23,789 bases of DNA, from the UHGV virus genome UHGV-1460385. The stretch is one strand, 5' to 3'. Below, piece by piece: positions 576-10,485 of this stretch (positions are counted from its first letter, which is position 1; each line of letters starts with the position of its first letter). Under the pieces are notes generated by a model, which worked only from the letters and a program-made list of their open reading frames with translations, was not told where the DNA came from and did not search any database. Source of the DNA: a virus. The translations under genes were made by a program, and so were the position numbers.

Positions 576-3263
576 CTATTCCACAACATCATCTTCTATC
601 AATTCAGCCTTATTTAGTTGTTCCTTAAGCTTATTCCATGCAGAATCCTCAGGCATCTGTACTCGCACAGAAACGAATTGATTAGCAGGAATGTCGATCG
701 GGTCACCGTTCGAAACACCAGGGATGTCGTTACGTGCAAAAACGGGCGAGTTATCATGAGTGCGGTGAAACGTTTTCACCAACACAGATCCATCTTGGTT
801 AACAACATAATCCAGCCAGATGAGCGGCTGCTTGTTTCGGTCCTGCGGTATTTCAAATCCACCATCAATCCCCCCCCATGAAGCATCTGCATTCAGACCT
901 ACGCAACCCTCAATCAGATATTCACCCAATGCCAGCCGTGTGACGGTTACCCCATCTGATTCGCGATTTGTTTCACTACTACCGTCTGAGAAAATCTTCA
1001 CAACCGGAGAGGCTTTTTTGATGAAACCACTTGAATCGACGGTCGTGTTCAGCGACGACCATGCCTCAGCCCAGCCTGTGTTACCTGCGCGAATAGCATC
1101 GTCTGCGTAGCGGAAGAACAGTTTTGATGTTGTGGACATGAATATCTGCAACACACGGTTTTTTGCATATCCTGACTCCCATAATGCTCCGTTACCTGTT
1201 CCTTCTGGCTGCCAGTTTGTCACCCCACCTGCAGCTCCTATACTTACACCAGTAGACCAGTCTCCAGCAAATTCTGGAAGATTTAGTGAGTTAGGTGAGC
1301 GAATTGATACATCAACCAGACCAGGGGATCCGAGAATCGACATGCTGCGGGAGGACACCTTAGTAAAAGAGTTGTACCCGCCGTTTTTGGAAATCCTTCC
1401 TGTATAATTATTAGCCCTGTTAGTTCCATTAACTGTAATTTCCCAGGTATCGCCGTTGATGAAGTCGATCTGCAATAGGCAGAATGCTGGCAGCGTCATC
1501 TGTCCTGGCGCAGATGGCCCACCTTCAAACAGTGGCATATCCTGTTCAAGATATGTCACATATCTACCTGCATCTGTATTCCGCAAATAGTCACAAATAG
1601 CCTGTGCCGATGTAAATAGCGCAATACCATCAGCCGGGTTTACAGGGTGACGGCCAGCGTTAATCACCCTTCCGCGAGGGTTAAATAACTGTGATGAGGC
1701 ATTGGATAGCGGAGTCATGTCTACTGTTCCAGGTTCATTAGATGGACAGTTAGCGCGAATGATGTTTAAAGTCCTATAATTTGATCCGCCCCCATTGTCA
1801 TAGCGAATAGACTGTAGAAGATACAATTCCTCAGAGCCAGAAATATCACAAGACTGCACCCCCTCATTTTCAGTGGAGTAAACACTCTTCCCTGAATAAC
1901 TATCCCAGTATGTTTTGAAATCTGCAGGTGACAGCAGGTACTGACCTAATTCTGAACCATTAAGGCTGTACTCAATATAACCCTGCAACCCTGCGAAAGT
2001 ATTTCCAGATCCCGCCGTGGTAGATGCACCAATACCAGCAAATATCCGTTGAGAACCAAGAGCGACACCCTGCCGTTTTGGTTTACCGGCTCCGCGACCT
2101 CCAACATTTGCATCAACCGTAATAGTCCCCATTGGACTGTAAGATCCTTCTATAAGGCTGTTAATATCCAGTGTGTTAAAGATATTGGATACACCTGTCT
2201 CAACATCAAAAATTTTCGGCCAACCCATATCCGCATTTTCGTATATCAGGGTATTACCAAAGCCACTAAACTGATATCGCACTCCAAGGCGTGTTGATTC
2301 AGTGAAGTTTGTAATCTGCGTTTTATCAACCAGCGTACGCGGATCTTCGATAGGGTAAATTCTGATAGTGCGAGATGGGCTGTACGGCAGCAGGATGTAA
2401 CGCTGTCCTGCCACTCGGTAAACGTGGATGCCTTCTGGTGCACCAACGTTATTCGGAAAATGAAGACGTGTTACCAATGCTCCTGTTACCCAGTCATGCA
2501 CCGTAACCCATACCGATGCGGGGTCTAGCGTCTGCCAGCCGATGTATACCATTCCATCATTGCTGTCTATGTAAATCCCCTGAAATCCCATGGTCGTGTA
2601 ACCATACTGATCTTTAAGATCTGCGGTAATCTCATCGTCTATGATGCTGAATTCTAATTTCCAGTTCAGCGGCCTACGCGTACCACTGACATGCCTAGAA
2701 ATATGAGACAGGTAGCTTTTAACCCCGCCTGCGATAATGTATCTATGTTTGATCTCAGTAACAATTCCAGTTGCAACTGGAGTGCATTTATAGACGCCGC
2801 CGTTTATTCTAATAAAATTGGTTCCTGTTAGATTATCCCCAATGGCAACGTCTTTTCTACTATTCTTAAACGTCCCATTACCTAAGTCAGTAACAAGCAA
2901 TGCCCCTTCTACATATTTCAATGACTGATCAGGGTCATACTTCAGCACATTAGGAAAATAGAACTGCTGCGCACCATACGCATCATAAACAGCCATAGAG
3001 TGGCCTTGCACAGTTACGAACTTGGCAATCTGTCCGTTATATACCGGGTAACCAGCAGCGTTAATGATTATTGGTTGCGAAACAGGAACGTGAGAACCGT
3101 CTTCATTCTCCACATAGACCTGAATCTGGTTTTCTGGATTTACAGGATCAGTGTCAATTTTACCGATATAAATTTTGCCATTGGCTACGGCTTTAAAAGA
3201 ACGCGCCATAGTGAAGAGTTGCGAAGGCATCGATACGATCACATTGGCTGTAATGTCTCTCAT
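576..3263 (-). CDS. Tailspike / receptor-binding protein (895 aa): P22-type N-terminal head-binding domain fused to a large non-P22 C-terminal body
   Basis: Residues 1-110 ([40 protein letters not shown]...[12 protein letters not shown]...NVLKYDPDQ) closely match my recollection of the P22 gp9 head-binding domain. The remaining ~780 aa do not resemble the P22 endorhamnosidase body. Last gene of the late operon, after ant, as in P22. ATG at 3263 with GGAG 9 nt upstream; TAG stop at 576-578. Confidence 0.9.
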
Positions 3264-3385: not shown

Positions 3386-4315
3386 TTAAAGTTTAATTGA
3401 GTGGCACGCTCTATCACGTATCGCTGCGAATGAAGCTATCTCTTTAAGTGCCCAGCTTTGCTCAGCCATTAAATGGCGAAGTGCTTTTAGTTCAGCTCTT
3501 ACTGCTGAAACGTCATACCCCGCTTTTGTCAGAATATTGATTAGTTTATACGCCGGACTGCATTCAACGAGTGCGCTGCGGTCAAGAGCAACAGTATCAC
3601 CGCATTGCTGCCTGATAATGGCGTAAGGTGCATTTTCAGCAAACCATGAAATCGGGAAGTTAATATCCAGTTTTGGCGCTGGTAACTCTTCTTGTTTGCC
3701 AATGAACTCACCTTCAAGCGGAACGCGAGCAGCAAGTGACAGTGCTTCGGTAAACTGCTCCTCACTGATTTCTTTGTACGAACATCCAAAATGGGATTTC
3801 AGTGACGACCACATGGTGATCATCGCCTTAGCCTGTTTTTCTTTTGGCAGAGACTGACCGCGACTCATGACGAGTTGTTTAATGGCTTCCTGCTGTTCAG
3901 TGGTAATTTTACTCGGCAACGCCTTTTTAGCTTTGCGTGGGTTAACTACATGACCTTTAGTCCAGTACTCGTAGAGCACATCGTCACACTCTTCCTGATA
4001 CTGGATTACCTTGTCGCGGATTTCAGGGCGGACTTTGTTTGGACTGATGGTTTGCAGCCAGCCAGCAAGTTTGCGAAGTGCCAAACAAATAATCTCACGG
4101 CACTGTTCATCACCAGGAAGCTGCATTGTGATTTTCACAATGGAGGTTTTAAACCGTTGCTTTATTTTCGTAAACTGTGAAGCCCAATCCATACCCATAC
4201 CTTCAACGATAGGTTTCATTGGGGTGTACGGCTCACCGTTGTGATTGACGACATAAAGCTCTGCGCCGTGGAATGGTACATTGATAGTAGATACTGCTGT
4301 TGCTATACTTTTCAT
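3386..4315 (-). CDS. ant: Antirepressor Ant (P22_AR-type N- and C-terminal domains), 309 aa from ATG 4315
   Basis: Position immediately upstream of the tailspike and downstream of arc, as in P22 immI; size near P22 Ant (300 aa). N-terminal VPFHGAELYVVNHNGEPYTPMKPIVEGMGMDW...QLPGDEQ resembles the P22 antirepressor N-domain family as I recall it. The ORF-track start at 4381 is TTG; the first ATG (4315) has AGGAAA 7 nt upstream. Confidence 0.7.
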   Translation of the reverse strand: MKSIATAVSTINVPFHGAELYVVNHNGEPYTPMKPIVEGMGMDWASQFTKIKQRFKTSIVKITMQLPGDEQCREIICLALRKLAGWLQTISPNKVRPEIRDKVIQYQEECDDVLYEYWTKGHVVNPRKAKKALPSKITTEQQEAIKQLVMSRGQSLPKEKQAKAMITMWSSLKSHFGCSYKEISEEQFTEALSLAARVPLEGEFIGKQEELPAPKLDINFPISWFAENAPYAIIRQQCGDTVALDRSALVECSPAYKLINILTKAGYDVSAVRAELKALRHLMAEQSWALKEIASFAAIRDRACHSIKL

Positions 4316-4390
4316 GTCAATATTTCCTAAGACGATTTGTTGATACCGAAGCCCTGACTGTTCCAGCAGTTGGGGCTTCAACGTTTTTCC
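4316..4390 (+). ncRNA. sar: sar-type antisense RNA candidate (~73 nt) covering the ant ribosome-binding site
   Basis: Plus-strand promoter -35 TTGATA (4281-4286), 17-bp spacer, -10 TATACT (4304-4309) with TGc extension. Predicted start near 4316, directly opposite the ant start codon. Ends at a long hairpin (GAAGCCC..ACTG-ttccag-CAGT..GGGCTTC, 4348-4379) followed by ACGTTTTT. Matches the known P22 sar arrangement; transcript not demonstrated. Confidence 0.5.
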
Positions 4391-4647
4391 ACTTCATTTT
4401 GAATTTGCTTAAGTAGCATATTTGTCTCGTCAAGCCTCTTGTTAATACGGTCAAGGCTTTCTACTAAATCGTTATGTGCATGTGATACTTCGTAATTTGA
4501 GACTGATTTCTTTTCCTCTATCGTCTTTGTCAATCGTTCCCCTGATTGATACATATTGATTAGCGCTGTAAAAATCACAAGCAAGCAAACCACAATGATT
4601 GCGCCAGACAAAAATTGTAAAGAACGATCAAGCAATGACACCCTCAT
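4378..4647 (-). CDS. Hypothetical 89-aa protein with one N-terminal transmembrane helix and a charged coiled-coil tail, between arc and ant
   Basis: ATG at 4647 overlaps the arc stop (ATGA). Predicted TM segment LSGAIIVVCLLVIFTALI followed by a heptad-like charged region. No family recognised. Confidence 0.5.
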   Translation of the reverse strand: MRVSLLDRSLQFLSGAIIVVCLLVIFTALINMYQSGERLTKTIEEKKSVSNYEVSHAHNDLVESLDRINKRLDETNMLLKQIQNEVEKR

Positions 4648-4802
4648 ACCATTACCCCCTCCCTCTTCAGGCTGTCCAATACTCGCTTGTAAATCTCAGA
4701 GTTAACAGATCGCTCATTCTCTTTGGCTACCTTGCGCACCAAATCCAATACTTCTTTAGGCATCCGCAAATTAAACTGCGGCATTTTTCTTGCACCTTGC
4801 AT
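4644..4802 (-). CDS. arc: Arc repressor (ribbon-helix-helix), 52 aa; below the 60-aa cutoff so absent from the ORF track
   Basis: Translation by hand: MQGARKMPQFNLRMPKEVLDLVRKVAKENERSVNSEIYKRVLDSLKREGVMV. This matches the P22 Arc sequence as I recall it (MKGMSKMPQFNLRWPREVLDLVRKVAEENGRSVNSEIYQRVMESFKKEGRIGA). GGAG 5 nt upstream of the ATG; TGA stop at 4644-4646. Confidence 0.85.
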   Translation of the reverse strand: MQGARKMPQFNLRMPKEVLDLVRKVAKENERSVNSEIYKRVLDSLKREGVMV

Positions 4803-4818
4803 ACCCTCTCCCAATCAA

Positions 4819-4889: not shown

Positions 4890-5144
4890 ATGTCCAGAGA
4901 AGACCCACAATTTAAGTTGCGCCTTCCAGCAGAGTTAAAAGCAAAGTTAGACCAAAGGGCAAAAATGAATGGTCGGTCTATCAATTCTGAACTAGTTCAG
5001 ATCGTACAGAAGGCGTTATCTGAACCATCACCGATTGCAGGCTATCGAGACGAAGCTGAACGCTTGGCTGATCAGCAAGCAGAGCAGTTCAAGACTGTTG
5101 TGTTTGAGACACTTAAAAAGATTTATGGCAAGGATGATAAATAA
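4890..5144 (+). CDS. mnt: Mnt repressor (Arc/MetJ-family ribbon-helix-helix), 84 aa
   Basis: MSREDPQFKLRLPAELKAKLDQRAKMNGRSINSELVQIVQKALSEPSPIAGYRDEAERLADQQ... is near-colinear with the P22 Mnt sequence as I recall it (ARDDPHFNFRMPMEVREKLKFRAEANGRSMNSELLQIVQDALSKPSPVTGYRNDAERLADEQ...). Divergent from arc-ant across an operator. Confidence 0.85.
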   Translation: MSREDPQFKLRLPAELKAKLDQRAKMNGRSINSELVQIVQKALSEPSPIAGYRDEAERLADQQAEQFKTVVFETLKKIYGKDDK

Positions 5145-5680
5145 TGCTGCACACAATTCATTTCTTATGCCCCGTTAACACCGCCACTGTTGGGCAACTT
5201 CAGAACCACTGTCTCACCGCATTATCTCAAGGCGCAACTGAATTAAATATCCATATATCAAGTCAGGGAGGGGAAACAGCCGCTGGCTTTACTGCGTATA
5301 ACTTTCTTAAGTCACTCCCTGTTACCGTTAGAACTCACAACATAAGCAATGTTGAATCCATAGCTAATATCGTTTTCCTGGCTGGCTCAGAACGTTTCGC
5401 AAACCCATTATCAAGATTCCTGTTACATCCTCTATTATGGTGCTTTGCCTCCCCAGCCGCCGACCATGCCAGATTGAGAGAGTACGGGAAATGCCTCGAT
5501 AACGATCTTGATCGCTTCGTTGAGACGTTCAATATCGACATCGGAACCCATATTAGGTGGGCATCCCTGATAGCAGACTCGACCATTTTGGATGCTAACA
5601 AGGCTCTTGAGCATGGCATAATTAATTCCATAAAAACTGCAAGGCTGGTATCCAATCAGGCAAACTGGTGGGTTGTTTGA
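5144..5680 (+). CDS. Truncated ClpP-family (S14-like) serine protease, 178 aa, translationally coupled to mnt
   Basis: Start ATG overlaps the mnt TAA (TAATG). By-eye alignment to E. coli ClpP: NIHISSQGGETAAG vs YINSPGGVITAG; SNVESIANIVFLAG vs GQAASMGAFLLTAG (Ser); RFLLHPL vs RVMIHQPL (His); ILDANKALEHGII vs FLSAPEAVEYGLV with an upstream Asp. Ser-His-Asp spacing matches. The ~25 N-terminal residues of ClpP are absent. Confidence 0.75.
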   Translation: MLHTIHFLCPVNTATVGQLQNHCLTALSQGATELNIHISSQGGETAAGFTAYNFLKSLPVTVRTHNISNVESIANIVFLAGSERFANPLSRFLLHPLLWCFASPAADHARLREYGKCLDNDLDRFVETFNIDIGTHIRWASLIADSTILDANKALEHGIINSIKTARLVSNQANWWVV

Positions 5681-5704: not shown

Positions 5705-5730
5705 TAAAAAACCCGCGATTAAGCGGGTTT
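5705..5730. terminator. Bidirectional intrinsic terminator between the convergent ClpP-like gene and the minus-strand antirepressor operon
   Basis: AAAAAA-CCCGC-GATTAA-GCGGG-TTT. Strong U-run for the minus-strand transcript, weaker (TTT) for the plus-strand one. Confidence 0.7.
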
Positions 5731-5736
5731 AGTTGG

Positions 5737-5958
5737 TTAGTTATCAAAAAGTCCGTACGTTTCTTCTTCTTCAGGTGTAAGGGGAAGAATCTCTACTCTA
5801 TCTATAGATACCTTTTCAATGTACCCATGAGGTCTACTTAAAATTAAAGCTCTCTCATGCCACAGAACTCCAAGAATGTGATACCTCCCAGCATCGCCTT
5901 TTACCCTGGCTCTTCCTTTGATTCTTGGCGGCATAATGCCATATTTTTTCTTTGCCAT
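5737..5958 (-). CDS. Hypothetical 73-aa protein, last gene of the minus-strand antirepressor operon
   Basis: ATG at 5958 overlaps the upstream TAA (TAATG); basic N-terminus, acidic C-terminus; followed by the terminator at 5705-5730. No family recognised. Confidence 0.45.
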   Translation of the reverse strand: MAKKKYGIMPPRIKGRARVKGDAGRYHILGVLWHERALILSRPHGYIEKVSIDRVEILPLTPEEEETYGLFDN

Positions 5959-6686
5959 TATGCAACATTACTCCCATGAATCAGGTGTTGTAGAGCTTTA
6001 ACACCTTCCGCATTGTAGCGGAATGCTTCCACCTGTTTGCTGGAATGTGCAGATTTATCCAGGAAGAACTTCCCGTACTGCTCAGTTTTGAGGTTGTTTG
6101 CGTTAGCAATGCGACCAATCTTGTTGGCCGTTACTCCAAGCTGCTCTGCAACCTCCCCTGCTGAGTAGTAATGCTCTTCTATTGCTGGAAGAGGTATTGC
6201 ATTAAAACCAACGATCGGGTTGATTATGCTTGCTGCCGCAGTCTGCTTTGCTTCCGGCGCAAGATTTGGCATCAAATCGAACAGATTGGTAACAGCTTCA
6301 ACCGTCATTTTCAATGTTCGCGCCTGGCGATACTCAACAAGTCCACTCGACGATTTACCGCTTTTAATGTGCGCTTCTTGCATACTTTCAAGTTGGTCTA
6401 CAAGTGAGCGGCGAACAGCTTTAGATTCACGAGCAGCCACTCGAAGGGCTTGCTTAATTGACATAACAACTTTTTCAGAAGTTGTCTTGTTTGATTTTTG
6501 AACTACGAAAATTTCGTAGTGCTCACCTTCAAGTTCATCCTTAATGCGTGCAATAAAGTCGTTATTTCGGACTTCTTTTTCCCCGCACTGTCTACGAGCA
6601 TGATTGACCATCTCTAACAGGTACTGGCTATCAATGGTTTTATCCGTGACAACGGATCCGATGTTTGCTACATTCTTAAAAGTCAT
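5958..6686 (-). CDS. Rha-like N-domain plus KilA-C-like C-domain protein (antirepressor-family regulator), 242 aa from ATG 6686
   Basis: N-terminal TIDSQYLLEMVNHARRQCGEKEVRNNDFIARIKDEL...HYEIFVVQKS resembles the Rha family. C-terminal YSAGEVAEQLGVTANKIGRIANANNLKTEQYGKFFLDKS resembles KilA-C-type antirepressor C-domains. AAGGA 7 nt upstream of ATG 6686; the track start at 6737 is GTG and would run through a terminator hairpin. Confidence 0.65.
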   Translation of the reverse strand: MTFKNVANIGSVVTDKTIDSQYLLEMVNHARRQCGEKEVRNNDFIARIKDELEGEHYEIFVVQKSNKTTSEKVVMSIKQALRVAARESKAVRRSLVDQLESMQEAHIKSGKSSSGLVEYRQARTLKMTVEAVTNLFDLMPNLAPEAKQTAAASIINPIVGFNAIPLPAIEEHYYSAGEVAEQLGVTANKIGRIANANNLKTEQYGKFFLDKSAHSSKQVEAFRYNAEGVKALQHLIHGSNVA

Positions 6687-6724
6687 TAGGCATTCCTTAT
6701 GTGGTAGTAAGGGTGTGACATAGG

Positions 6725-6755
6725 CCGCCAGCAGCACACTGGCGGTTTTCTTTTT
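6725..6755 (+). terminator. Orphan plus-strand intrinsic terminator in the Bro-N / Rha-like intercistronic gap
   Basis: CCGCCAG-cagcaca-CTGGCGG followed by TTTTCTTTTT. Canonical geometry. There is no annotated plus-strand gene upstream, so it would terminate an antisense transcript. Confidence 0.6.
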
Positions 6756-6774
6756 GCGCAGTCCGGCGCACCAA

Positions 6775-7401
6775 TCAATGAATCCATTCCTCGCCGCGAA
6801 GTTTTGCCAGCATTGGCTGAGCGTTCTTTACGACAAAATTGTTGGTATCAAGATTCTTCATTTCACGAAGAAGTGATTTCTTGGTTTCTTCTGACATGTA
6901 GCGAGTCTCATATGCAATATCGTAAATCCTTCCTGAAAGCTCAGAACCAATTTGCTTCATTCCTGGGTAGATGTGTTTGCACATTTGTTGACTCTTCTCC
7001 ATCCACAATTGTAAGTAGCAGAGATTAACCAGTTCTTCGTCAGTAAACTGTTTTGCAATCGGTGAGCATTCTGCCTGCCGATCCAAAATATCCAGCACCC
7101 AGCGGCGGAACTCTTTGGCTACCGGAGTGCGAGCAAACATCGCGATTAGGTGGGCACCGCGTAGTGAGAAAACTCGCACTTTTTTGCGATAATTTCCTGA
7201 GGTACTCACTTCGAGTACCTGAGTCATTCCGGCGCTAAACTCATCGCTATACTTGTTATAAATCATTGTTACTGCACGACTATTTGCGTATTTAAGTGCA
7301 GATGCAATATTAGATGATGTAAACCAAACACCATGCATATCACGGGTGGGCACCAACTCAACTCCGTGGAAGTTGTAATCTGATTTTGCTACAATATTCA
7401 T
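6775..7401 (-). CDS. Bro-N domain antirepressor-like protein, 208 aa from ATG 7401
   Basis: NFHGVELVPTRDMHGVWFTSSNIASALKYANSRAVTMIYNKY...KKVRVFSLRGAHLIAMFARTPVAKEFRRWVLDIL fits the Bro-N prophage antirepressor pattern. AGGAAA 6 nt upstream of ATG 7401; the track start at 7506 is TTG. Confidence 0.8.
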   Translation of the reverse strand: MNIVAKSDYNFHGVELVPTRDMHGVWFTSSNIASALKYANSRAVTMIYNKYSDEFSAGMTQVLEVSTSGNYRKKVRVFSLRGAHLIAMFARTPVAKEFRRWVLDILDRQAECSPIAKQFTDEELVNLCYLQLWMEKSQQMCKHIYPGMKQIGSELSGRIYDIAYETRYMSEETKKSLLREMKNLDTNNFVVKNAQPMLAKLRGEEWIH

Positions 7402-7476
7402 GTTAGTTTCCTTGCATACGGTTACTGACATAGAGGCCCGGTTTGTGTTCGCGCACTGCCGGGCTTCACTATTTTT
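7402..7476 (+). ncRNA. Second sar-like antisense RNA candidate, opposite the Bro-N gene start
   Basis: Extended -10 TGcTACAAT at 7387-7395 on the plus strand, ending 3 nt before the complement of the Bro-N ATG (same geometry as at ant). Hairpin GCCCGG..CCGGGC (7436-7464) followed by U-rich TTCACTATTTTTATT. Weak -35, and the U-tract is interrupted. Confidence 0.35.
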
Positions 7477-7648
7477 ATTGGATGACAACATCGCCCTTTG
7501 CCTCAAGTTTCATCAATAACTCCATTCGATAAGCTATCTCTGCCTGAATTGACCTATGGCATCTTTTTGCTGATTCGCGGATATGTGAATCAACCTTTTC
7601 TGTAAAACGAACCTGACGCGGCTTGATGGAAGATATCTTTTCAGTCAT
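7475..7648 (-). CDS. Arc-like ribbon-helix-helix regulator, 57 aa; absent from the ORF track
   Basis: Translation by hand: MTEKISSIKPRQVRFTEKVDSHIRESAKRCHRSIQAEIAYRMELLMKLEAKGDVVIQ. Pattern of beta-strand (RQVRFTEKV) then two helices with RS-I-EI motif is typical of Arc/CopG. GGAG 6 nt upstream of ATG 7648; TAA at 7475-7477. Confidence 0.7.
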   Translation of the reverse strand: MTEKISSIKPRQVRFTEKVDSHIRESAKRCHRSIQAEIAYRMELLMKLEAKGDVVIQ

Positions 7649-7697
7649 TATGCACTCCTGTTTTTAAAAAACTCATAATCTCACTTTTTGTAGTTTG

Positions 7698-7726
7698 ATT
7701 ATTCACTCACACTCAGCATGAGTCAA
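7698..7726 (-). promoter_or_regulatory. Pant-like promoter for the Arc-like / Bro-N operon
   Basis: Minus strand -35 TTGACT (7726-7721), 17-bp spacer containing tandem CACTCA repeats, -10 AATAAT (7703-7698). Confidence 0.4.
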
Positions 7727-7747
7727 TGAATTTTTTATGGTGAACTA

Positions 7748-8389
7748 ATGAATTTTGACGATCAATTCCCATCAAGAGTATCTCTGGCAAGACAGTCCAG
7801 GGGTATGACGCAGGCGCAGTTGTCAAAATTAGCTGGTGTTGTTCAACGTCAAATAGCTGCATACGAGGGTGGTGAGGCTAAACCACGGCTTCGGGTATTG
7901 CAGGCATTAGCCAACGCATTAGGTACTACAGCTGAGTGGTTAGCTCTAGGTGAAGGTCAGGGTCCGGGAACAAAAAACGTCATGCCTGACGTTCTGGTAA
8001 AGCAAATACCAATCCTCAAACTAGATGAAGTTATGCATTACCTAAACACAGGTGAACATTCATCGTCTAGATTTCATCCGGCAATATACAATGTTGGTGA
8101 CTCTGCATTTGCATTGACTATTGAAGGTGAAGCTATGACTACAAGTTCAGGTATTAGCTTTCCCAGAGGATCGGTTGTCACGTTCAGCCCTCTAGTAAAA
8201 GCTAAAAGCAAAGATTATGTAATAGCATCATTGGATAAAGAGCAAATATTGAGCTTCAAACAGGTTTACATTGGTGAAATAGAGACAAACCTAGTATCCC
8301 TAAACCCAATGTATCCTAATATTCTTGTTAGAAATGAAGATGTTAGTATTTTGGCAACCGCAGTTTACCTTGAAATCCCGTTGCTTTGA
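7748..8389 (+). CDS. Lambda-CI/LexA-fold repressor (HTH plus S24-like C-domain) with Ala at the nucleophile position
   Basis: N-terminal Cro/C1-type HTH (MTQAQLSKLAGVVQRQIAAYEGGEAKP). C-domain aligns with lambda CI: FALTIEGEAM vs FWLDVQGDSM (Ser to Ala, codon GCT), LSFKQV vs ATFKKL (Lys kept), LNPMYPNI vs LNPQYPMI. Confidence 0.85.
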   Translation: MNFDDQFPSRVSLARQSRGMTQAQLSKLAGVVQRQIAAYEGGEAKPRLRVLQALANALGTTAEWLALGEGQGPGTKNVMPDVLVKQIPILKLDEVMHYLNTGEHSSSRFHPAIYNVGDSAFALTIEGEAMTTSSGISFPRGSVVTFSPLVKAKSKDYVIASLDKEQILSFKQVYIGEIETNLVSLNPMYPNILVRNEDVSILATAVYLEIPLL

Positions 8390-8449
8390 TATCCTTTAGG
8401 AAGCGACACATTATCATCTGGTATCCTGCTCAAAACTAAGGAGGTTGGT

Positions 8450-8638
8450 GTGAAGAAAAAATTTGTAAACGTTGCAAAGTGCGCAATTTTTATATTTTTT
8501 ATGACCTTTTACGGATTTAGTGCCGGAGAAGGTTTCGATCGTGATGCCAATGCATTCAGTTTCTTTTGTCTGTCTATAGTGGTCATAATTGTATGGGTGG
8601 AATTAAAGCAAACATTGTTTCATGTGCTAAGGAAATAA
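8450..8638 (+). CDS. Small two-helix membrane protein (62 aa) downstream of the CI-like repressor
   Basis: GTG start preceded by AAGGAGG at 5-nt spacing. Two hydrophobic segments (CAIFIFFMTFYGF and FSFFCLSIVVIIVWV). Same strand as the repressor, 60 bp downstream. Confidence 0.55.
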   Translation: MKKKFVNVAKCAIFIFFMTFYGFSAGEGFDRDANAFSFFCLSIVVIIVWVELKQTLFHVLRK

Positions 8639-8655
8639 CCATCCATGGCATTTAG

Positions 8656-10485
8656 TCACTGCTGTGTTGCCTCAGTGGCAAGCAGCGGTCTGATGGCATT
8701 TGCAGCGTTACTTAATGCTCTTTCATAGGCTGGCGTTCCTGCTTTGGTGTTTGCCAAACGTAAGAGAGCATTCCTTGCTGCTTTTGACTCATACAAGCGC
8801 ATCATTGCACCGAAACCAGCCTCAAGCCCCATTGATACGCCAAGAGTCGCAGTTGCGCCAATCGTCCTTATCCTGTTGGCTTGCGATTGTCCTGTCTGTG
8901 TTACTACATTTGCGGCGTCCGACCTTGCTGTTTGCTGTAGAACTTCATGAAGAGCATCAAGCTCTTTCATGTGTCTCCCACTGAATATCGTGTTATAGAT
9001 CTGACCGTCAGATTGCGACTTCAACTTATTTAACTCGGTAAGAAATTTTGTTGGCGAGTCTCCTGCTTTTTCTGCAATCTTGCTGATATAAGCAGCACGC
9101 ATAGCGTTCTTTCCATCTTCACTAAGAGCTGGCCATATCCTCTTAATATCTGATGGTTTTCTGCTGAATACAACACTGTTTATTAGCTCTGGAGTAAACT
9201 CTTTTTTAGCTTTGTTGAGATTATTCGCAATCCTTTTATTAAGAACCTTATTGAAGACGTTAGAGTAGTCAGAGTTTGCCTTGACGTATCTGGCGGCCTC
9301 TCCAGCCCCCAAATACCGCGCTGCGTTATTCCTCAAATCTGCCCCCATTGCCCTCTCCACGGTATCAGTTGCGGCTTTCGCGCTATTAGGAAAAACCATG
9401 GCATCTCCCTGAATACTTTCCCTCAAGGCTGACCGCAACTCTCTCAATAGACCAAAATCTATATCTGGTTTAGCAAGTTCTTCTCGCAAATCGGATAACC
9501 CGCGAATCAAATCCTTATTTGCCACTTTCCCAAGCCTATTAGCTCTGGTAAGTACGTTGTCGATAACCTTAATAGATTTTGATGTGTCAACTGGTGTGTC
9601 TCCCATTTTGGCTGTAATGTCTTCAATAACGCTTCCGGCCGAATCCTTCCTTGACTTCAGAGAACCATACAGATCGTCAACAACAACTGATGGGCTATAT
9701 TCACCATATTTCTCAAGCTGTTTTTTAACTAGCTGACTTCTTTTTGCATACTGCTCAGCTCGCTTTGAGCCTGTCCCGAGCAAAGCCCCCTCGGCATCCT
9801 GAGTTAGGCCGCGAGTGAAAGCATTTTTCGGCGGGATAACATCAGATGTCATTGGTGTCACGCCCATCGATTCTGAGGTGGCAATTTTTTTCGCTACTTC
9901 TGGCGCGATATCGCCTTTTATAGCCGTTATTCCACGCCCTATTCCCTTTGCTGCTGCGGAAAGAACACCCTGAGCAGCAAGGTTAACTCCGGCGTTTATG
10001 GCTGCATTTTGCGCGAAATCGCCTTTCTGGTTTGCGGCTTCTGCCAGTGATCCAATAGCCATGCTTCCTGCAGTTCCAACTCCTGGAACTAAATACCCGC
10101 CAATTGTTTCTCCAGCTTGCGCATAAGGGTCTGTTGGTCGATCTACTGGACGATAGACATCGTCCAAAACCTTGTGACCACCAAGCCCCTGGCTGATTGC
10201 ATTAATCAGACTTGCGCCACCCTGCAATACGTCAAATGGTATGTTTACCAGACCACGACCAGCCTGTTCTGCAATTTGCCCTGCACTTTGACCACCAGTG
10301 AGCCAATCGCCAGCTTGTTGCATCAATGATGGTTCTTCCTGTGTTGGTGCATTATTGGCCTGATTAACTGTTTGTTGCTGAACAGCCTGACCAGCAAAAT
10401 ACTCATCAATGGCGGTGCCAATATCTTCGGTGCTCGTACCATCAGGAAAGGTAAATGTCTTACCGTTTGCAGTTACTTTCATCAT
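8656..10485 (-). CDS. 16: Ejection (internal virion) protein gp16, 609 aa
   Basis: Same length as P22 gp16 and N-terminus [16 protein letters not shown] as I recall it; last of the three ejection-protein genes. ATGA overlap with gp20. Confidence 0.9.

Follow-up and report, generated by a model that had tools for sequence, protein, structure and literature searches.

The four minus-strand genes at 5737-7648 of the window (the whole 23,789-nucleotide stretch of the virus genome UHGV-1460385 analysed here), together with a divergent repressor gene, probably constitute a self-contained, horizontally exchanged antirepressor module of the P22 immI type. P22 immI is the textbook secondary immunity system, which combines protein repressors with an antisense RNA. 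The behaviour of its components Mnt, Arc, sar and Ant has been summarised (PMC2629481, PMC8022706). Judged in silico, the cassette appears to be a real and intact variant of this module. We infer its antirepressor activity and its targets; the 'antirepressor' names that PHROG and Pfam give to its proteins are annotations by family. The features of the cassette are as follows.

5706-8410, no strand, about 2.7 kb: mobile cassette (mosaic unit), from breakpoints in the phage and genome comparison
5710-5729, minus strand: intrinsic operon terminator and left cassette edge, from the fold and the mosaic boundary at this position
5737-5958, minus strand: translationally coupled 73-aa ORF, from PHROG and its overlap
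5958-6686, minus strand: 242-aa two-domain protein (PHROG 1726 'anti-repressor')
6646-6674, plus strand: promoter of antisense RNA 2 (GTGACA, 17 nt, TGnTACATT), from the promoter scan
6681-6757, plus strand: predicted antisense RNA 2, about 75 nt, from the terminator scan and covariation
6775-7401, minus strand: 208-aa Bro-N + P22AR_C antirepressor-family protein, from Pfam and PHROG
7386-7395, plus strand: extended -10 promoter (TTGCTACAAT) of sar-like RNA 1, from its likeness to the canonical Psar
7402-7475, plus strand: predicted sar-like antisense RNA 1 in the RHH/Bro-N gap, from the fold and a covariance model
7475-7648, minus strand: 57-aa Arc-like RHH protein, first gene of the operon, from profile comparison and position
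7666-7684, minus strand: conserved block TGAGA-TTA-TGAGTTT between the -10 hexamer and the ribosome-binding site
7698-7726, minus strand: operon promoter-like site (TTGACT, 17 nt, AATAAT), with 10 of 12 consensus matches
7711-7723, no strand: perfect palindrome ACTCA-GCA-TGAGT over the -35 hexamer and spacer, read from the sequence
7748-8389, plus strand: divergent maintenance repressor of 213 aa with HTH_3 and S24-like domains, from Pfam and alignments

The cassette, which comprises the four minus-strand genes and the divergent HTH_3 and Peptidase_S24 repressor gene, occupies the 'ant moron' position of a P22-like genome, between gene 16 and mnt. It adjoins a canonical mnt-arc-sar-ant immunity region that the window also carries, with the true Mnt at 4890-5144 (an RHH protein of the Pfam Arc and Repressor_Mnt type) and the canonical Ant at 3386-4315 (P22_AR_N, E 4.8e-45). 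In JEP4-type genomes, the adjoining mnt is an orphan. Comparisons with JEP4 and 25 complete E. coli genomes showed that the match to the window starts at 5706 and runs onward, while phiv205-1, EC.P3 and E212 have no cassette and their matches end at ~5714 and resume at ~8406. The window as a whole was covered to 69% at most by any of 5426 complete E. coli genomes. The four co-oriented genes described in the first-pass annotation are present, with starts that match the RefSeq gene lengths in homologous prophages, and its count of three antirepressor-family proteins in the window is correct, the third being the canonical Ant. A second antirepressor-type operon under separate regulation is likewise supported. 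All five ORFs of the cassette are uninterrupted, both here and in the viable phage JEP4 and the 25 E. coli genomes. JEP4 and the window share their repressor, RHH and 73-aa proteins at 100% identity (dS 0.02-0.04), and the cargo genes are under purifying selection (dN/dS 0.07-0.42). The promoter, the ribosome-binding sites, the terminator and the two structured antisense RNAs are kept across genera.

The repressor gene (7748-8389) faces the operon (7648-5737) across a 99-bp control region at 7649-7747, and this divergent arrangement is kept in other loci, as is the TTGAC of the operon -35 hexamer. The palindrome over the -35 hexamer and spacer is a candidate operator of the CI-type repressor, and the conserved block at 7666-7684 is a candidate operator of the RHH protein, both assignments resting on position and co-variation over few loci. 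At the corresponding site, loci whose repressors are 43-47% identical have another palindrome, ATATGAA-N3-TTCATAT. The 7666-7684 block is common to Yersinia and Klebsiella loci whose RHH proteins are 81-86% identical, although the upstream palindrome differs there. The promoter scan found no sigma-70-like promoter with at least 9 of 12 matches for the repressor gene; the alternative of a leaderless start, driven by a TATGGT -10 hexamer, was not supported.

Pfam comparisons identified HTH_3 (9e-13) and Peptidase_S24 (1.3e-12) in the 213-aa repressor. Its domain order and the lysine of the catalytic dyad are those of lambda CI, P22 C2 and LexA, with strong local similarity at the active-site strand (SAFALTIEGEAMT vs. 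SAFWLEVEGNSMT). However, alignment with lambda CI, LexA and the C2 repressor of JEP4, all of which have serine in a G-[DN]-S-M motif, showed that GEAM replaces GDSM, with the catalytic serine changed to alanine. GEAM is also found in P0300 and P0301. The general-base lysine is present (SFKQV aligns with TFKKL of lambda). At the scissile Ala-Gly (or Cys-Gly) bond the aligned residues are Glu-Val, in a linker whose alignment is less certain than that of the active site. Thus, RecA-driven cleavage of the repressor is unlikely, and the protein is best described as a probable pseudo-peptidase that should not respond to DNA damage, a trait that the first-pass annotation had missed. It further differs from the lambda CI, P22 C2 and LexA family in controlling an accessory operon rather than lytic promoters. 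Homologues at 42-49% identity keep the serine and the lysine, and one of them (P0315) also has Ala-Gly; since these more distant proteins retain the dyad, some family members might still cleave.

The first-pass annotation had found no LexA box (CTG-N10-CAG) in the control region and had proposed regulation by local repressors. The 7649-7747 region indeed contains no such box; when up to one mismatch is allowed, 7600-7800 has a single site, which falls within the RHH coding sequence. The absence of both the catalytic serine and the Ala-Gly site from the divergent CI-type repressor strengthens the case for local control without LexA. With the nucleophile and cleavage site lost and no LexA box, no link to the SOS response is predicted.

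The first gene of the operon encodes a 57-aa protein that compares with Arc/Mnt in hhalign at 93.7% probability (E 1.9e-7) and holds the arc position in parallel modules. Its Pfam matches to Arc (0.011; 16.0 bits vs. a cutoff of 20.4) and ParD_like (8e-4) are both under the cutoff, the best match in the PDB profile search is AmrZ (0.028), and the AF2 monomer is a single long helix rather than a helix-turn-helix. The first-pass description of an unannotated Arc-like RHH gene is supported at the profile level but not in the word 'unannotated', as the protein is listed as hypothetical in RefSeq and in JEP4.

The Bro-N assignment of the next gene agrees with Pfam, which places Bro-N (PF02498; 41.6 bits vs. 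a gathering threshold of 25.6) at residues 23-105 of the 208-aa protein and additionally P22_AR_C (PF10548; 53.4 bits vs. 22.4) at residues 117-184; PHROG assigns it to family 245, 'anti-repressor Ant' (2e-53). A 243-aa version from a TTG start was set aside for the 208-aa ATG start with an AAGGAA ribosome-binding site. The gap between the RHH and Bro-N genes is predicted to encode a sar-like antisense RNA, which the first-pass annotation had missed. Its promoter lies 3 nt ahead of the complement of the Bro-N start codon, is nearly identical to the canonical Psar region of the window (TTGCTATACT-TTT-CAT) and is kept in 8 other loci. The RNA would form a stem-loop with an anti-SD UUUCCU followed by a terminator hairpin, is complementary to the Bro-N ribosome-binding site and shares the two-hairpin layout of the canonical sar (dG -33.3 kcal/mol, z -6.1). 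Derived from 7 other loci, the covariance model R1 gives 7402-7475 a score of 36.8 bits (E 2e-5) and the canonical sar one of 53.3 bits. Among 73 related loci it detects a single RNA of this kind in 50, in every case antisense. The Rfam sar model RF00262 has no match at 7402-7475, and at gathering score neither it nor any other Rfam family has a match in the cassettes of 8 related loci. A SymR-like Rfam match was dismissed (21.8 bits vs. a gathering score of 61).

In the 242-aa protein, a helical linker connects an N-domain (about residues 14-110) to a MerR/Xis-like winged helix at the C-terminus. The protein has no Pfam match (Phage_pRha PF09669 included, E up to 0.1) or NCBIfam match, and the PDB sequence search gave nothing usable. 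The first-pass annotation had described it as a Rha-like N-domain with a KilA-C-like C-domain. These family labels fail in the domain and profile comparisons: the C-domain shows no similarity to ANT/KilAC (PF03374; hhalign probability 1%), nor does the N-domain to Rha, and hhalign to Rha-containing relatives aligns only the shared C-domain. However, the architecture class holds, as one of shuffled domains. The C-domain is found elsewhere after Bro-N, Rha, ORF6N and KilA-N domains and the N-domain before ANT domains, and the Foldseek matches are phage proteins named antirepressor, KilA or KilAC. Like the Bro-N, KilA-N, Rha and ANT (KilAC) regulators, the protein joins an N-domain through a linker to a small C-terminal domain of a DNA-binding type, and its domains are fused to those families, whereas its halves fall under the Rha and ANT Pfam thresholds and its C-domain is a winged helix.

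Another predicted antisense RNA, also overlooked before and unrelated to sar-like RNA 1, spans the start codon and SD of the 242-aa gene. Its promoter lies within codons 5-14 of that gene. Both hexamers and their spacing are the same in all 18 of the 18 loci compared, which come from many genera, while the spacer sequence varies. The terminator hairpin at 6722-6748 is followed by UUUUCUUUUU. Compensatory changes occur in 4 of the 9 pairs of its stem and 96.5% of the cells are paired, a level that none of 500 shuffles attained. For the covariance model R2, which was derived from 15 other loci, this RNA is the sole significant match in the window (50.5 bits, E 2e-9), and no Rfam family corresponds to the RNA. 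The same hairpin was rejected as a terminator of the operon, as its U-tract and G-U pairs fit the plus strand only.

Comparisons of related loci showed that the pair of repressor and 57-aa gene is kept while the cargo changes, in sipho- and myovirus prophages of Yersinia, Klebsiella and Morganella. The alternative cargoes are Bro-N/P22AR_C, KilA-N with ANT, Rha with the same C-domain as the 242-aa protein, and a P22_AR_N Ant homologue; in Klebsiella the pair drives this Ant homologue, which is 46.6% identical to the Ant of the window (tblastn). In sister modules, the same cargo has Mnt and Arc as regulators instead. Across many Enterobacterales, in prophages of the sipho-, myo- and podovirus types, the repressor and RHH pair appears to drive interchangeable cargo alongside the Mnt/Arc versions, and the whole cassette behaves in silico as a mobile unit with kept regulators and swapped cargo, which the first-pass annotation had not recognised.

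The cassette resembles P22 immI in lying in the same slot, between genes 16 and 9, in its divergent maintenance repressor, in a small, putatively RHH protein as the product of the first gene, in a predicted cis-antisense RNA that precedes the antirepressor gene and matches sar in promoter motif and two-hairpin fold, and in a protein with a P22_AR_C domain. However, its maintenance repressor is of the CI type (HTH_3 and Peptidase_S24) rather than an RHH Mnt, its RHH-like protein has diverged so far that it misses the Pfam Arc cutoff, its antirepressor has Bro-N in place of P22_AR_N, it has a 73-aa gene and two large cargo genes with a predicted antisense RNA apiece, and neither RNA is detected by the Rfam sar model. 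Enterobacterales prophages with all three kinds of tail would carry the P22 immI circuit in a second, widespread form, in which a CI-type repressor without self-cleavage replaces Mnt and the antirepressor cargo is freely swapped. The Rfam model would cover only a small part of the sar RNA family, and for another gene family the same task would fall to a second antisense RNA, unrelated to the first. The cassette is a concrete candidate for the 'different mechanism' of ant control that was inferred by Villafane et al. (PMC2629481) for P22-like coliphages without arc. A phage with two immI-type modules side by side would also be a natural system for the layering of antirepressor specificities in polylysogens.

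In the proposed working of the module, the CI-type repressor of a lysogen would bind the palindrome over the -35 hexamer and spacer and keep the operon off, taking the role of Mnt. Because the S24-like domain has neither the serine nucleophile nor the Ala-Gly site, it would act as a dimerisation module and not as a RecA-triggered switch. On entry of the DNA into a cell without this repressor, the operon promoter would fire and yield the 57-aa RHH, Bro-N/P22AR_C, 242-aa and 73-aa proteins, and the RHH protein may then close the promoter in the manner of Arc. The two cis-antisense RNAs, whose predicted extended -10 promoters lie within the 5' portions of both large genes, would pair with the ribosome-binding sites of these genes and cap translation, as sar does on ant. 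By family, the two large proteins may bind and inactivate CI/C2-type repressors of their own phage or of resident prophages, which could favour lytic growth or anti-immunity. The layered arsenal proposed in the first-pass annotation is a conjecture. It is also conceivable, but rather unlikely, that the modules form a relay, in which the non-cleavable CI look-alike is the target of the canonical Ant 3 kb away or of the Ant of an incoming phage, so that release from Mnt lets Ant strip the cassette repressor and second-tier antirepressors with other specificities follow. Such a relay would broadcast induction or anti-immunity across co-resident prophages without SOS input.

The slot and the repressor allow other readings. 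At the position of the P22 sieA gene (PMC2629481), the cassette could be a defence or exclusion moron, in which toxic or transcription-blocking effectors with Bro-N and wHTH domains are held by a decoy CI-like repressor and freed, for abortive infection or exclusion, when an antirepressor or other factor of an invading phage inactivates the decoy. The non-cleavable CI look-alike would suit a decoy, and the 242-aa protein has domains of a DNA-binding type rather than a proven repressor-binding domain. However, PADLOC gave no match to the cargo proteins beyond an HTH-level one (0.0036), an Arc-like first gene and translational brakes of the sar type are typical of immI, whose purpose is a brief pulse of expression on entry, and in Klebsiella the same control pair drives the P22 Ant homologue. 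We consider both the moron and this mode of release unlikely.

Coupling to SOS, in which RecA-stimulated self-cleavage or loss of LexA would release antirepressors that induce the prophage, is suggested by the Peptidase_S24 domain, by the homologues with Ser and Lys and by Ala-Gly in P0315. LexA-controlled antirepressors are well documented (PMC3121763), and the modules of 186 (Tum), N15 (AntC) and Gifsy (GfoA/GfhA) share with the cassette a separate locus, trans-acting antirepressor-family proteins and their own repressor (PMC3121763). Unlike them, the cassette has no LexA box, and its local repressor and the closest relatives of this protein have alanine at the nucleophile and Glu-Val at the Ala-Gly position. 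JEP4, with the same cassette, has a full-length immC C2 repressor with GDSM and Ala-Gly intact; thus the cassette is not needed for SOS induction there. This coupling is improbable. Still less credible is the reading that the cassette no longer functions and is what is left of a former immunity region in decay. The interval between genes 16 and 9 is in rapid flux with frequent degraded ant genes (PMC2629481), and an orphaned mnt lies beside the cassette in JEP4-type genomes. However, the five intact ORFs, the three proteins identical in JEP4, the cargo dN/dS values and the expression signals and RNAs kept across genera argue against decay, one of the outcomes in which the first-pass annotation would have been wrong.

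At the distal end of the operon, the first-pass annotation had noted a bidirectional terminator, which is only half true, because just three T follow on the plus strand, whereas on the minus strand the hairpin at 5710-5729 is followed by U6 (dG -13.5 kcal/mol, z -2.9). Pfam, NCBIfam and PDB sequence searches with the last gene product, of 73 aa, gave nothing usable. Its coupling is as first described, the stop codon of the 242-aa gene and its own start codon overlapping as TAATG. The protein belongs to PHROG 4977 (5.5e-54), and among the versions of the cassette its gene is confined to the P22-like one of E. coli.

In reverse reading, the window corresponds to the late/immI end of a P22-like genome (Lederbergvirus type). 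The interval from gene 16 to gene 9 is what Villafane et al. (PMC2629481; see also PMC8022706) call the 'ant moron'. Their 16 genomes gave 10 types of it, and because some coliphages carry ant genes without arc, they proposed for these 'a mechanism that differs from P22'. It was already known that the region is variable, and an alternative control of ant was suspected. The literature searched contained no description of a control pair of CI-type pseudo-peptidase and RHH protein or of its wide distribution, and none of an enlarged sar family or a second antisense RNA family.

Features of the window (coordinates, strand, description)
576-3263, minus, tailspike with Head_binding domain
3386-4315, minus, Ant (P22_AR_N, E 4.8e-45)
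4317-4383, plus, canonical sar RNA (Rfam RF00262, 66 bits)
4378-4647, minus, 89-aa ORF with hydrophobic N-terminus (PHROG 27312, a family without functional annotation)
4644-4814, minus, arc
4890-5144, plus, mnt
5144-5680, plus, ClpP-like serine-protease gene (Pfam CLP_protease, 2e-11)
6646-6674, plus, promoter-like site (GTGACA, 17 nt, TGnTACATT) within codons 5-14 of the 242-aa gene
6722-6748, plus, terminator hairpin followed by TTTTCTTTTT, in the 88 nt between the Bro-N and 242-aa genes
7726-7698, minus, candidate operon promoter (TTGACT, 17 nt, AATAAT; 10/12 matches)
7711-7723, perfect palindrome ACTCA-GCA-TGAGT overlapping the -35 hexamer and spacer of the operon promoter
7748-8389, plus, divergent 213-aa repressor (HTH_3 and Peptidase_S24) inside the mobile block
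8656-10485, minus, gp16-type ejection protein gene with homologues in related genomes

By analogy, the anatomy of the cassette at 5706 to ~8410 is that of P22 immI part for part, differing in the superfamily of the repressor and in the doubled cargo. The cassette repressor would functionally take the place of Mnt. All four minus-strand ORFs of the first-pass annotation are present, with best starts at 7648 (57 aa), 7401 (208 aa, AAGGAA ribosome-binding site), 6686 (242 aa, AAGGAA) and 5958 (73 aa, overlapping the 242-aa stop in TAATG), and the resulting gene lengths agree with RefSeq in E. coli E66 and EC17CM7. The hairpin at 5710-5729, previously read as a bidirectional terminator, has a U6 tail on the minus strand (-13.5 kcal/mol, z -2.9) but a T-run of just three bases on the plus strand, so that the bidirectional label is only half borne out. 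Pfam confirmed the Bro-N domain of the 208-aa protein and showed that it also carries P22_AR_C. The Arc-like RHH label of the 57-aa gene falls under the Pfam cutoffs (Arc 0.011, ParD_like 8e-4) but is supported by alignment of its family profile with Arc/Mnt (hhalign, 93.7% probability, E 1.9e-7), which extends from the beta-strand through helix A into the first part of helix B and takes in the RS(I/V)xxEI motif. The top PDB profile match is the Arc-family protein AmrZ (0.028). The AF2 monomer is a single long helix, a model uninformative for an obligate intertwined dimer. The window Ant has P22_AR_N only, P22_AR_C being instead on the Bro-N protein (6775-7401, minus strand); the two P22 antirepressor Pfam domains are thus split over two proteins with different repressors.

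The 242-aa protein has no match in Pfam or NCBIfam, yet over its full length it belongs to PHROG 1726 'anti-repressor' (2.4e-100), and its family comprises >2000 proteins in Enterobacterales. An exhaustive HMMER search found its two halves independently of each other, and Pfam scans of the relatives placed the C-half behind Bro-N, Rha, ORF6N or KilA-N and the N-half ahead of ANT/KilAC domains; the Rha fusions were confirmed by hhalign. In the AF2 model (pLDDT 72), an N-domain of beta-alpha-alpha-beta-beta-alpha topology is followed by long linker helices and by a small domain at the C-terminus, and its full-length Foldseek matches among viral models carry the names antirepressor, KilA or KilAC (best E 6e-9). 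Direct profile comparison of the family with ANT was negative (probability 1.1%). Thus, the protein belongs to the architectural class meant by the earlier Rha/KilA-C-like label, whereas membership in the Rha or KilAC families was rejected.

Alignment of the cassette repressor showed that it reads IEGEAMT where lambda CI has GNSMT, LexA GMSMK and the JEP4 immC C2 GDSMT, and D-E-V-M at the position of their Ala-Gly bond; the Lys is retained. Of 25 homologues, those with the Ala are P0300, P0301, P0303 and P0304, the four closest of this kind, and L011 from Morganella; Ser-Lys is retained in most of the others and Ala-Gly in just one. Judged from these residues, the window repressor would have no capacity for self-cleavage, making RecA-driven cleavage unlikely, so that no SOS input to the cassette is predicted. 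As the first-pass annotation stated, the control region has no LexA box (CTG-N10-CAG); the sole one-mismatch site falls within the 57-aa coding sequence. An SOS-coupled module is disfavoured by both the lost active site and the missing box.

At the site equivalent to the palindrome, loci with repressors just 43-47% identical have another palindrome, and a block 3' of the -10 hexamer (…TATGAGTTT…) is common to loci with RHH proteins 81-86% identical. From the few loci compared, we infer that the palindrome is a candidate operator of the repressor and the block a candidate operator of the RHH protein. A promoter scan gave no good candidate for the repressor gene.

The RHH and Bro-N genes are 73 nt apart, and in this gap the plus strand reads TTGCTACAAT-ATT-CAT, a near match to the canonical Psar region TTGCTATACT-TTT-CAT. 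The 79 nt 3' of this promoter form two hairpins (-33.3 kcal/mol, z -6.1), the first exposing UUUCCU and the second a terminator, in the dot-bracket layout of canonical sar. The element (predicted RNA 1) recurs in eight further loci, which include both types of regulator, and 6 of 14 pairs of its terminator stem show compensatory changes. A covariance model built from seven other loci only, scanned with filters off, matched canonical sar (53.3 bits, E 1.4e-8) and RNA 1 (36.8 bits, E 2e-5), and nothing further in the whole window at E < 0.1. It found one element in 50 of 73 related loci, in each case on the strand opposite the operon and directly next to the first cargo gene. The Rfam model RF00262 misses such elements (0 at gathering score in 8 loci tested). 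Sar-like RNAs are far commoner than it captures (loci L005-L060, antisense, just 5' of the first antirepressor gene). RNA 1 (7399-7470, plus strand) also has weak Rfam similarity to the cis-antisense RNA SymR (21.8 bits against a gathering score of 61), probably only a common hairpin layout.

The promoter-like site and terminator before the 242-aa gene delimit a predicted RNA 2 of ~75 nt, which would cover the start codon and Shine-Dalgarno sequence of that gene. All 18 loci compared (from Serratia, Buttiauxella, Citrobacter, Proteus, Erwinia, Kluyvera, Pantoea, Xenorhabdus, Klebsiella, Morganella and others) keep the two hexamers, the TGn and the distance to the start codon unchanged and differ in the spacer and in the residues encoded there. 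The terminator stem is 96.5% paired and 4 of 9 pairs covary; 0 of 500 shuffles equalled this and slid controls collapsed. On the operon strand, its G-U pairs would turn into A-C mismatches. A model from 15 other loci matched 6678-6761 (plus strand; 50.5 bits, E 2e-9) as its only significant match in the window, and no Rfam family matches RNA 2. The sar-type model gave 8 bits, indicating that RNA 2 is an analogue of sar rather than a homologue. Both RNAs are presumably produced and would repress translation.

Megablast showed that 5706 to ~8410 travels as one block, whose copy in phage JEP4 is 95% identical and whose copies in 25 complete E. coli genomes are 95-99.6% identical; phiv205-1, EC.P3 and E212 have only its flanks in common. 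For the window, with its combination of both modules, a search of 5426 complete E. coli genomes gave no match with coverage above 69%. In JEP4, E. coli E66 and EC17CM7, all the annotated genomes examined with the cassette, it adjoins an orphan mnt without arc or ant. The repressor, RHH and 73-aa proteins of JEP4 are identical to those of the window but the Bro-N and 242-aa proteins only 77% and 87% identical, indicating that regulators and cargo recombine separately. Contigs with 57-aa homologues (81-86% identical), which come from Yersinia and Klebsiella prophages of sipho- and myovirus type, without exception carry a homologous HTH_3+S24 repressor gene in divergent orientation to the RHH gene. 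Their cargo is Bro-N then KilA-N+ANT, Bro-N/P22AR_C and next to it a fusion of Rha with the 242-aa C-domain, or a lone P22_AR_N protein 46.6% identical to the window Ant. Contigs with 242-aa homologues have the Bro-N and 242-aa pair behind a CI-type repressor or a Mnt/Arc pair; across 54 species-level loci, tblastn found a Mnt-like gene upstream in ~26 and a CI-type repressor in 7.

The conservation of the parts and selection on the cargo genes (dN/dS 0.07-0.42) contradict a decaying remnant, and a role as a defence module found no positive support. In the immI-like reading, the cargo proteins would inactivate repressors. A more novel but much less likely reading is a relay, in which the neighbouring canonical Ant would act on the cassette repressor itself as a substrate.

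The 89-aa ORF sits as an insert between arc and sar/ant and overlaps arc at its stop codon; the 74 related loci contained no recognisable homologue. The ClpP-like gene, 99% identical to a copy in phiv205-1, shares 1 nt with the stop codon of mnt and is therefore probably co-expressed with the maintenance repressor Mnt in lysogens; NCBIfam head-maturation models scored under cutoff and PADLOC gave no match. Directly 3' of the cassette repressor, a strongly hydrophobic 62-aa ORF (8450-8638, plus strand) without a match in family searches lies in backbone DNA partly common to phiv205-1 and epsilon34, and might be a small membrane moron.
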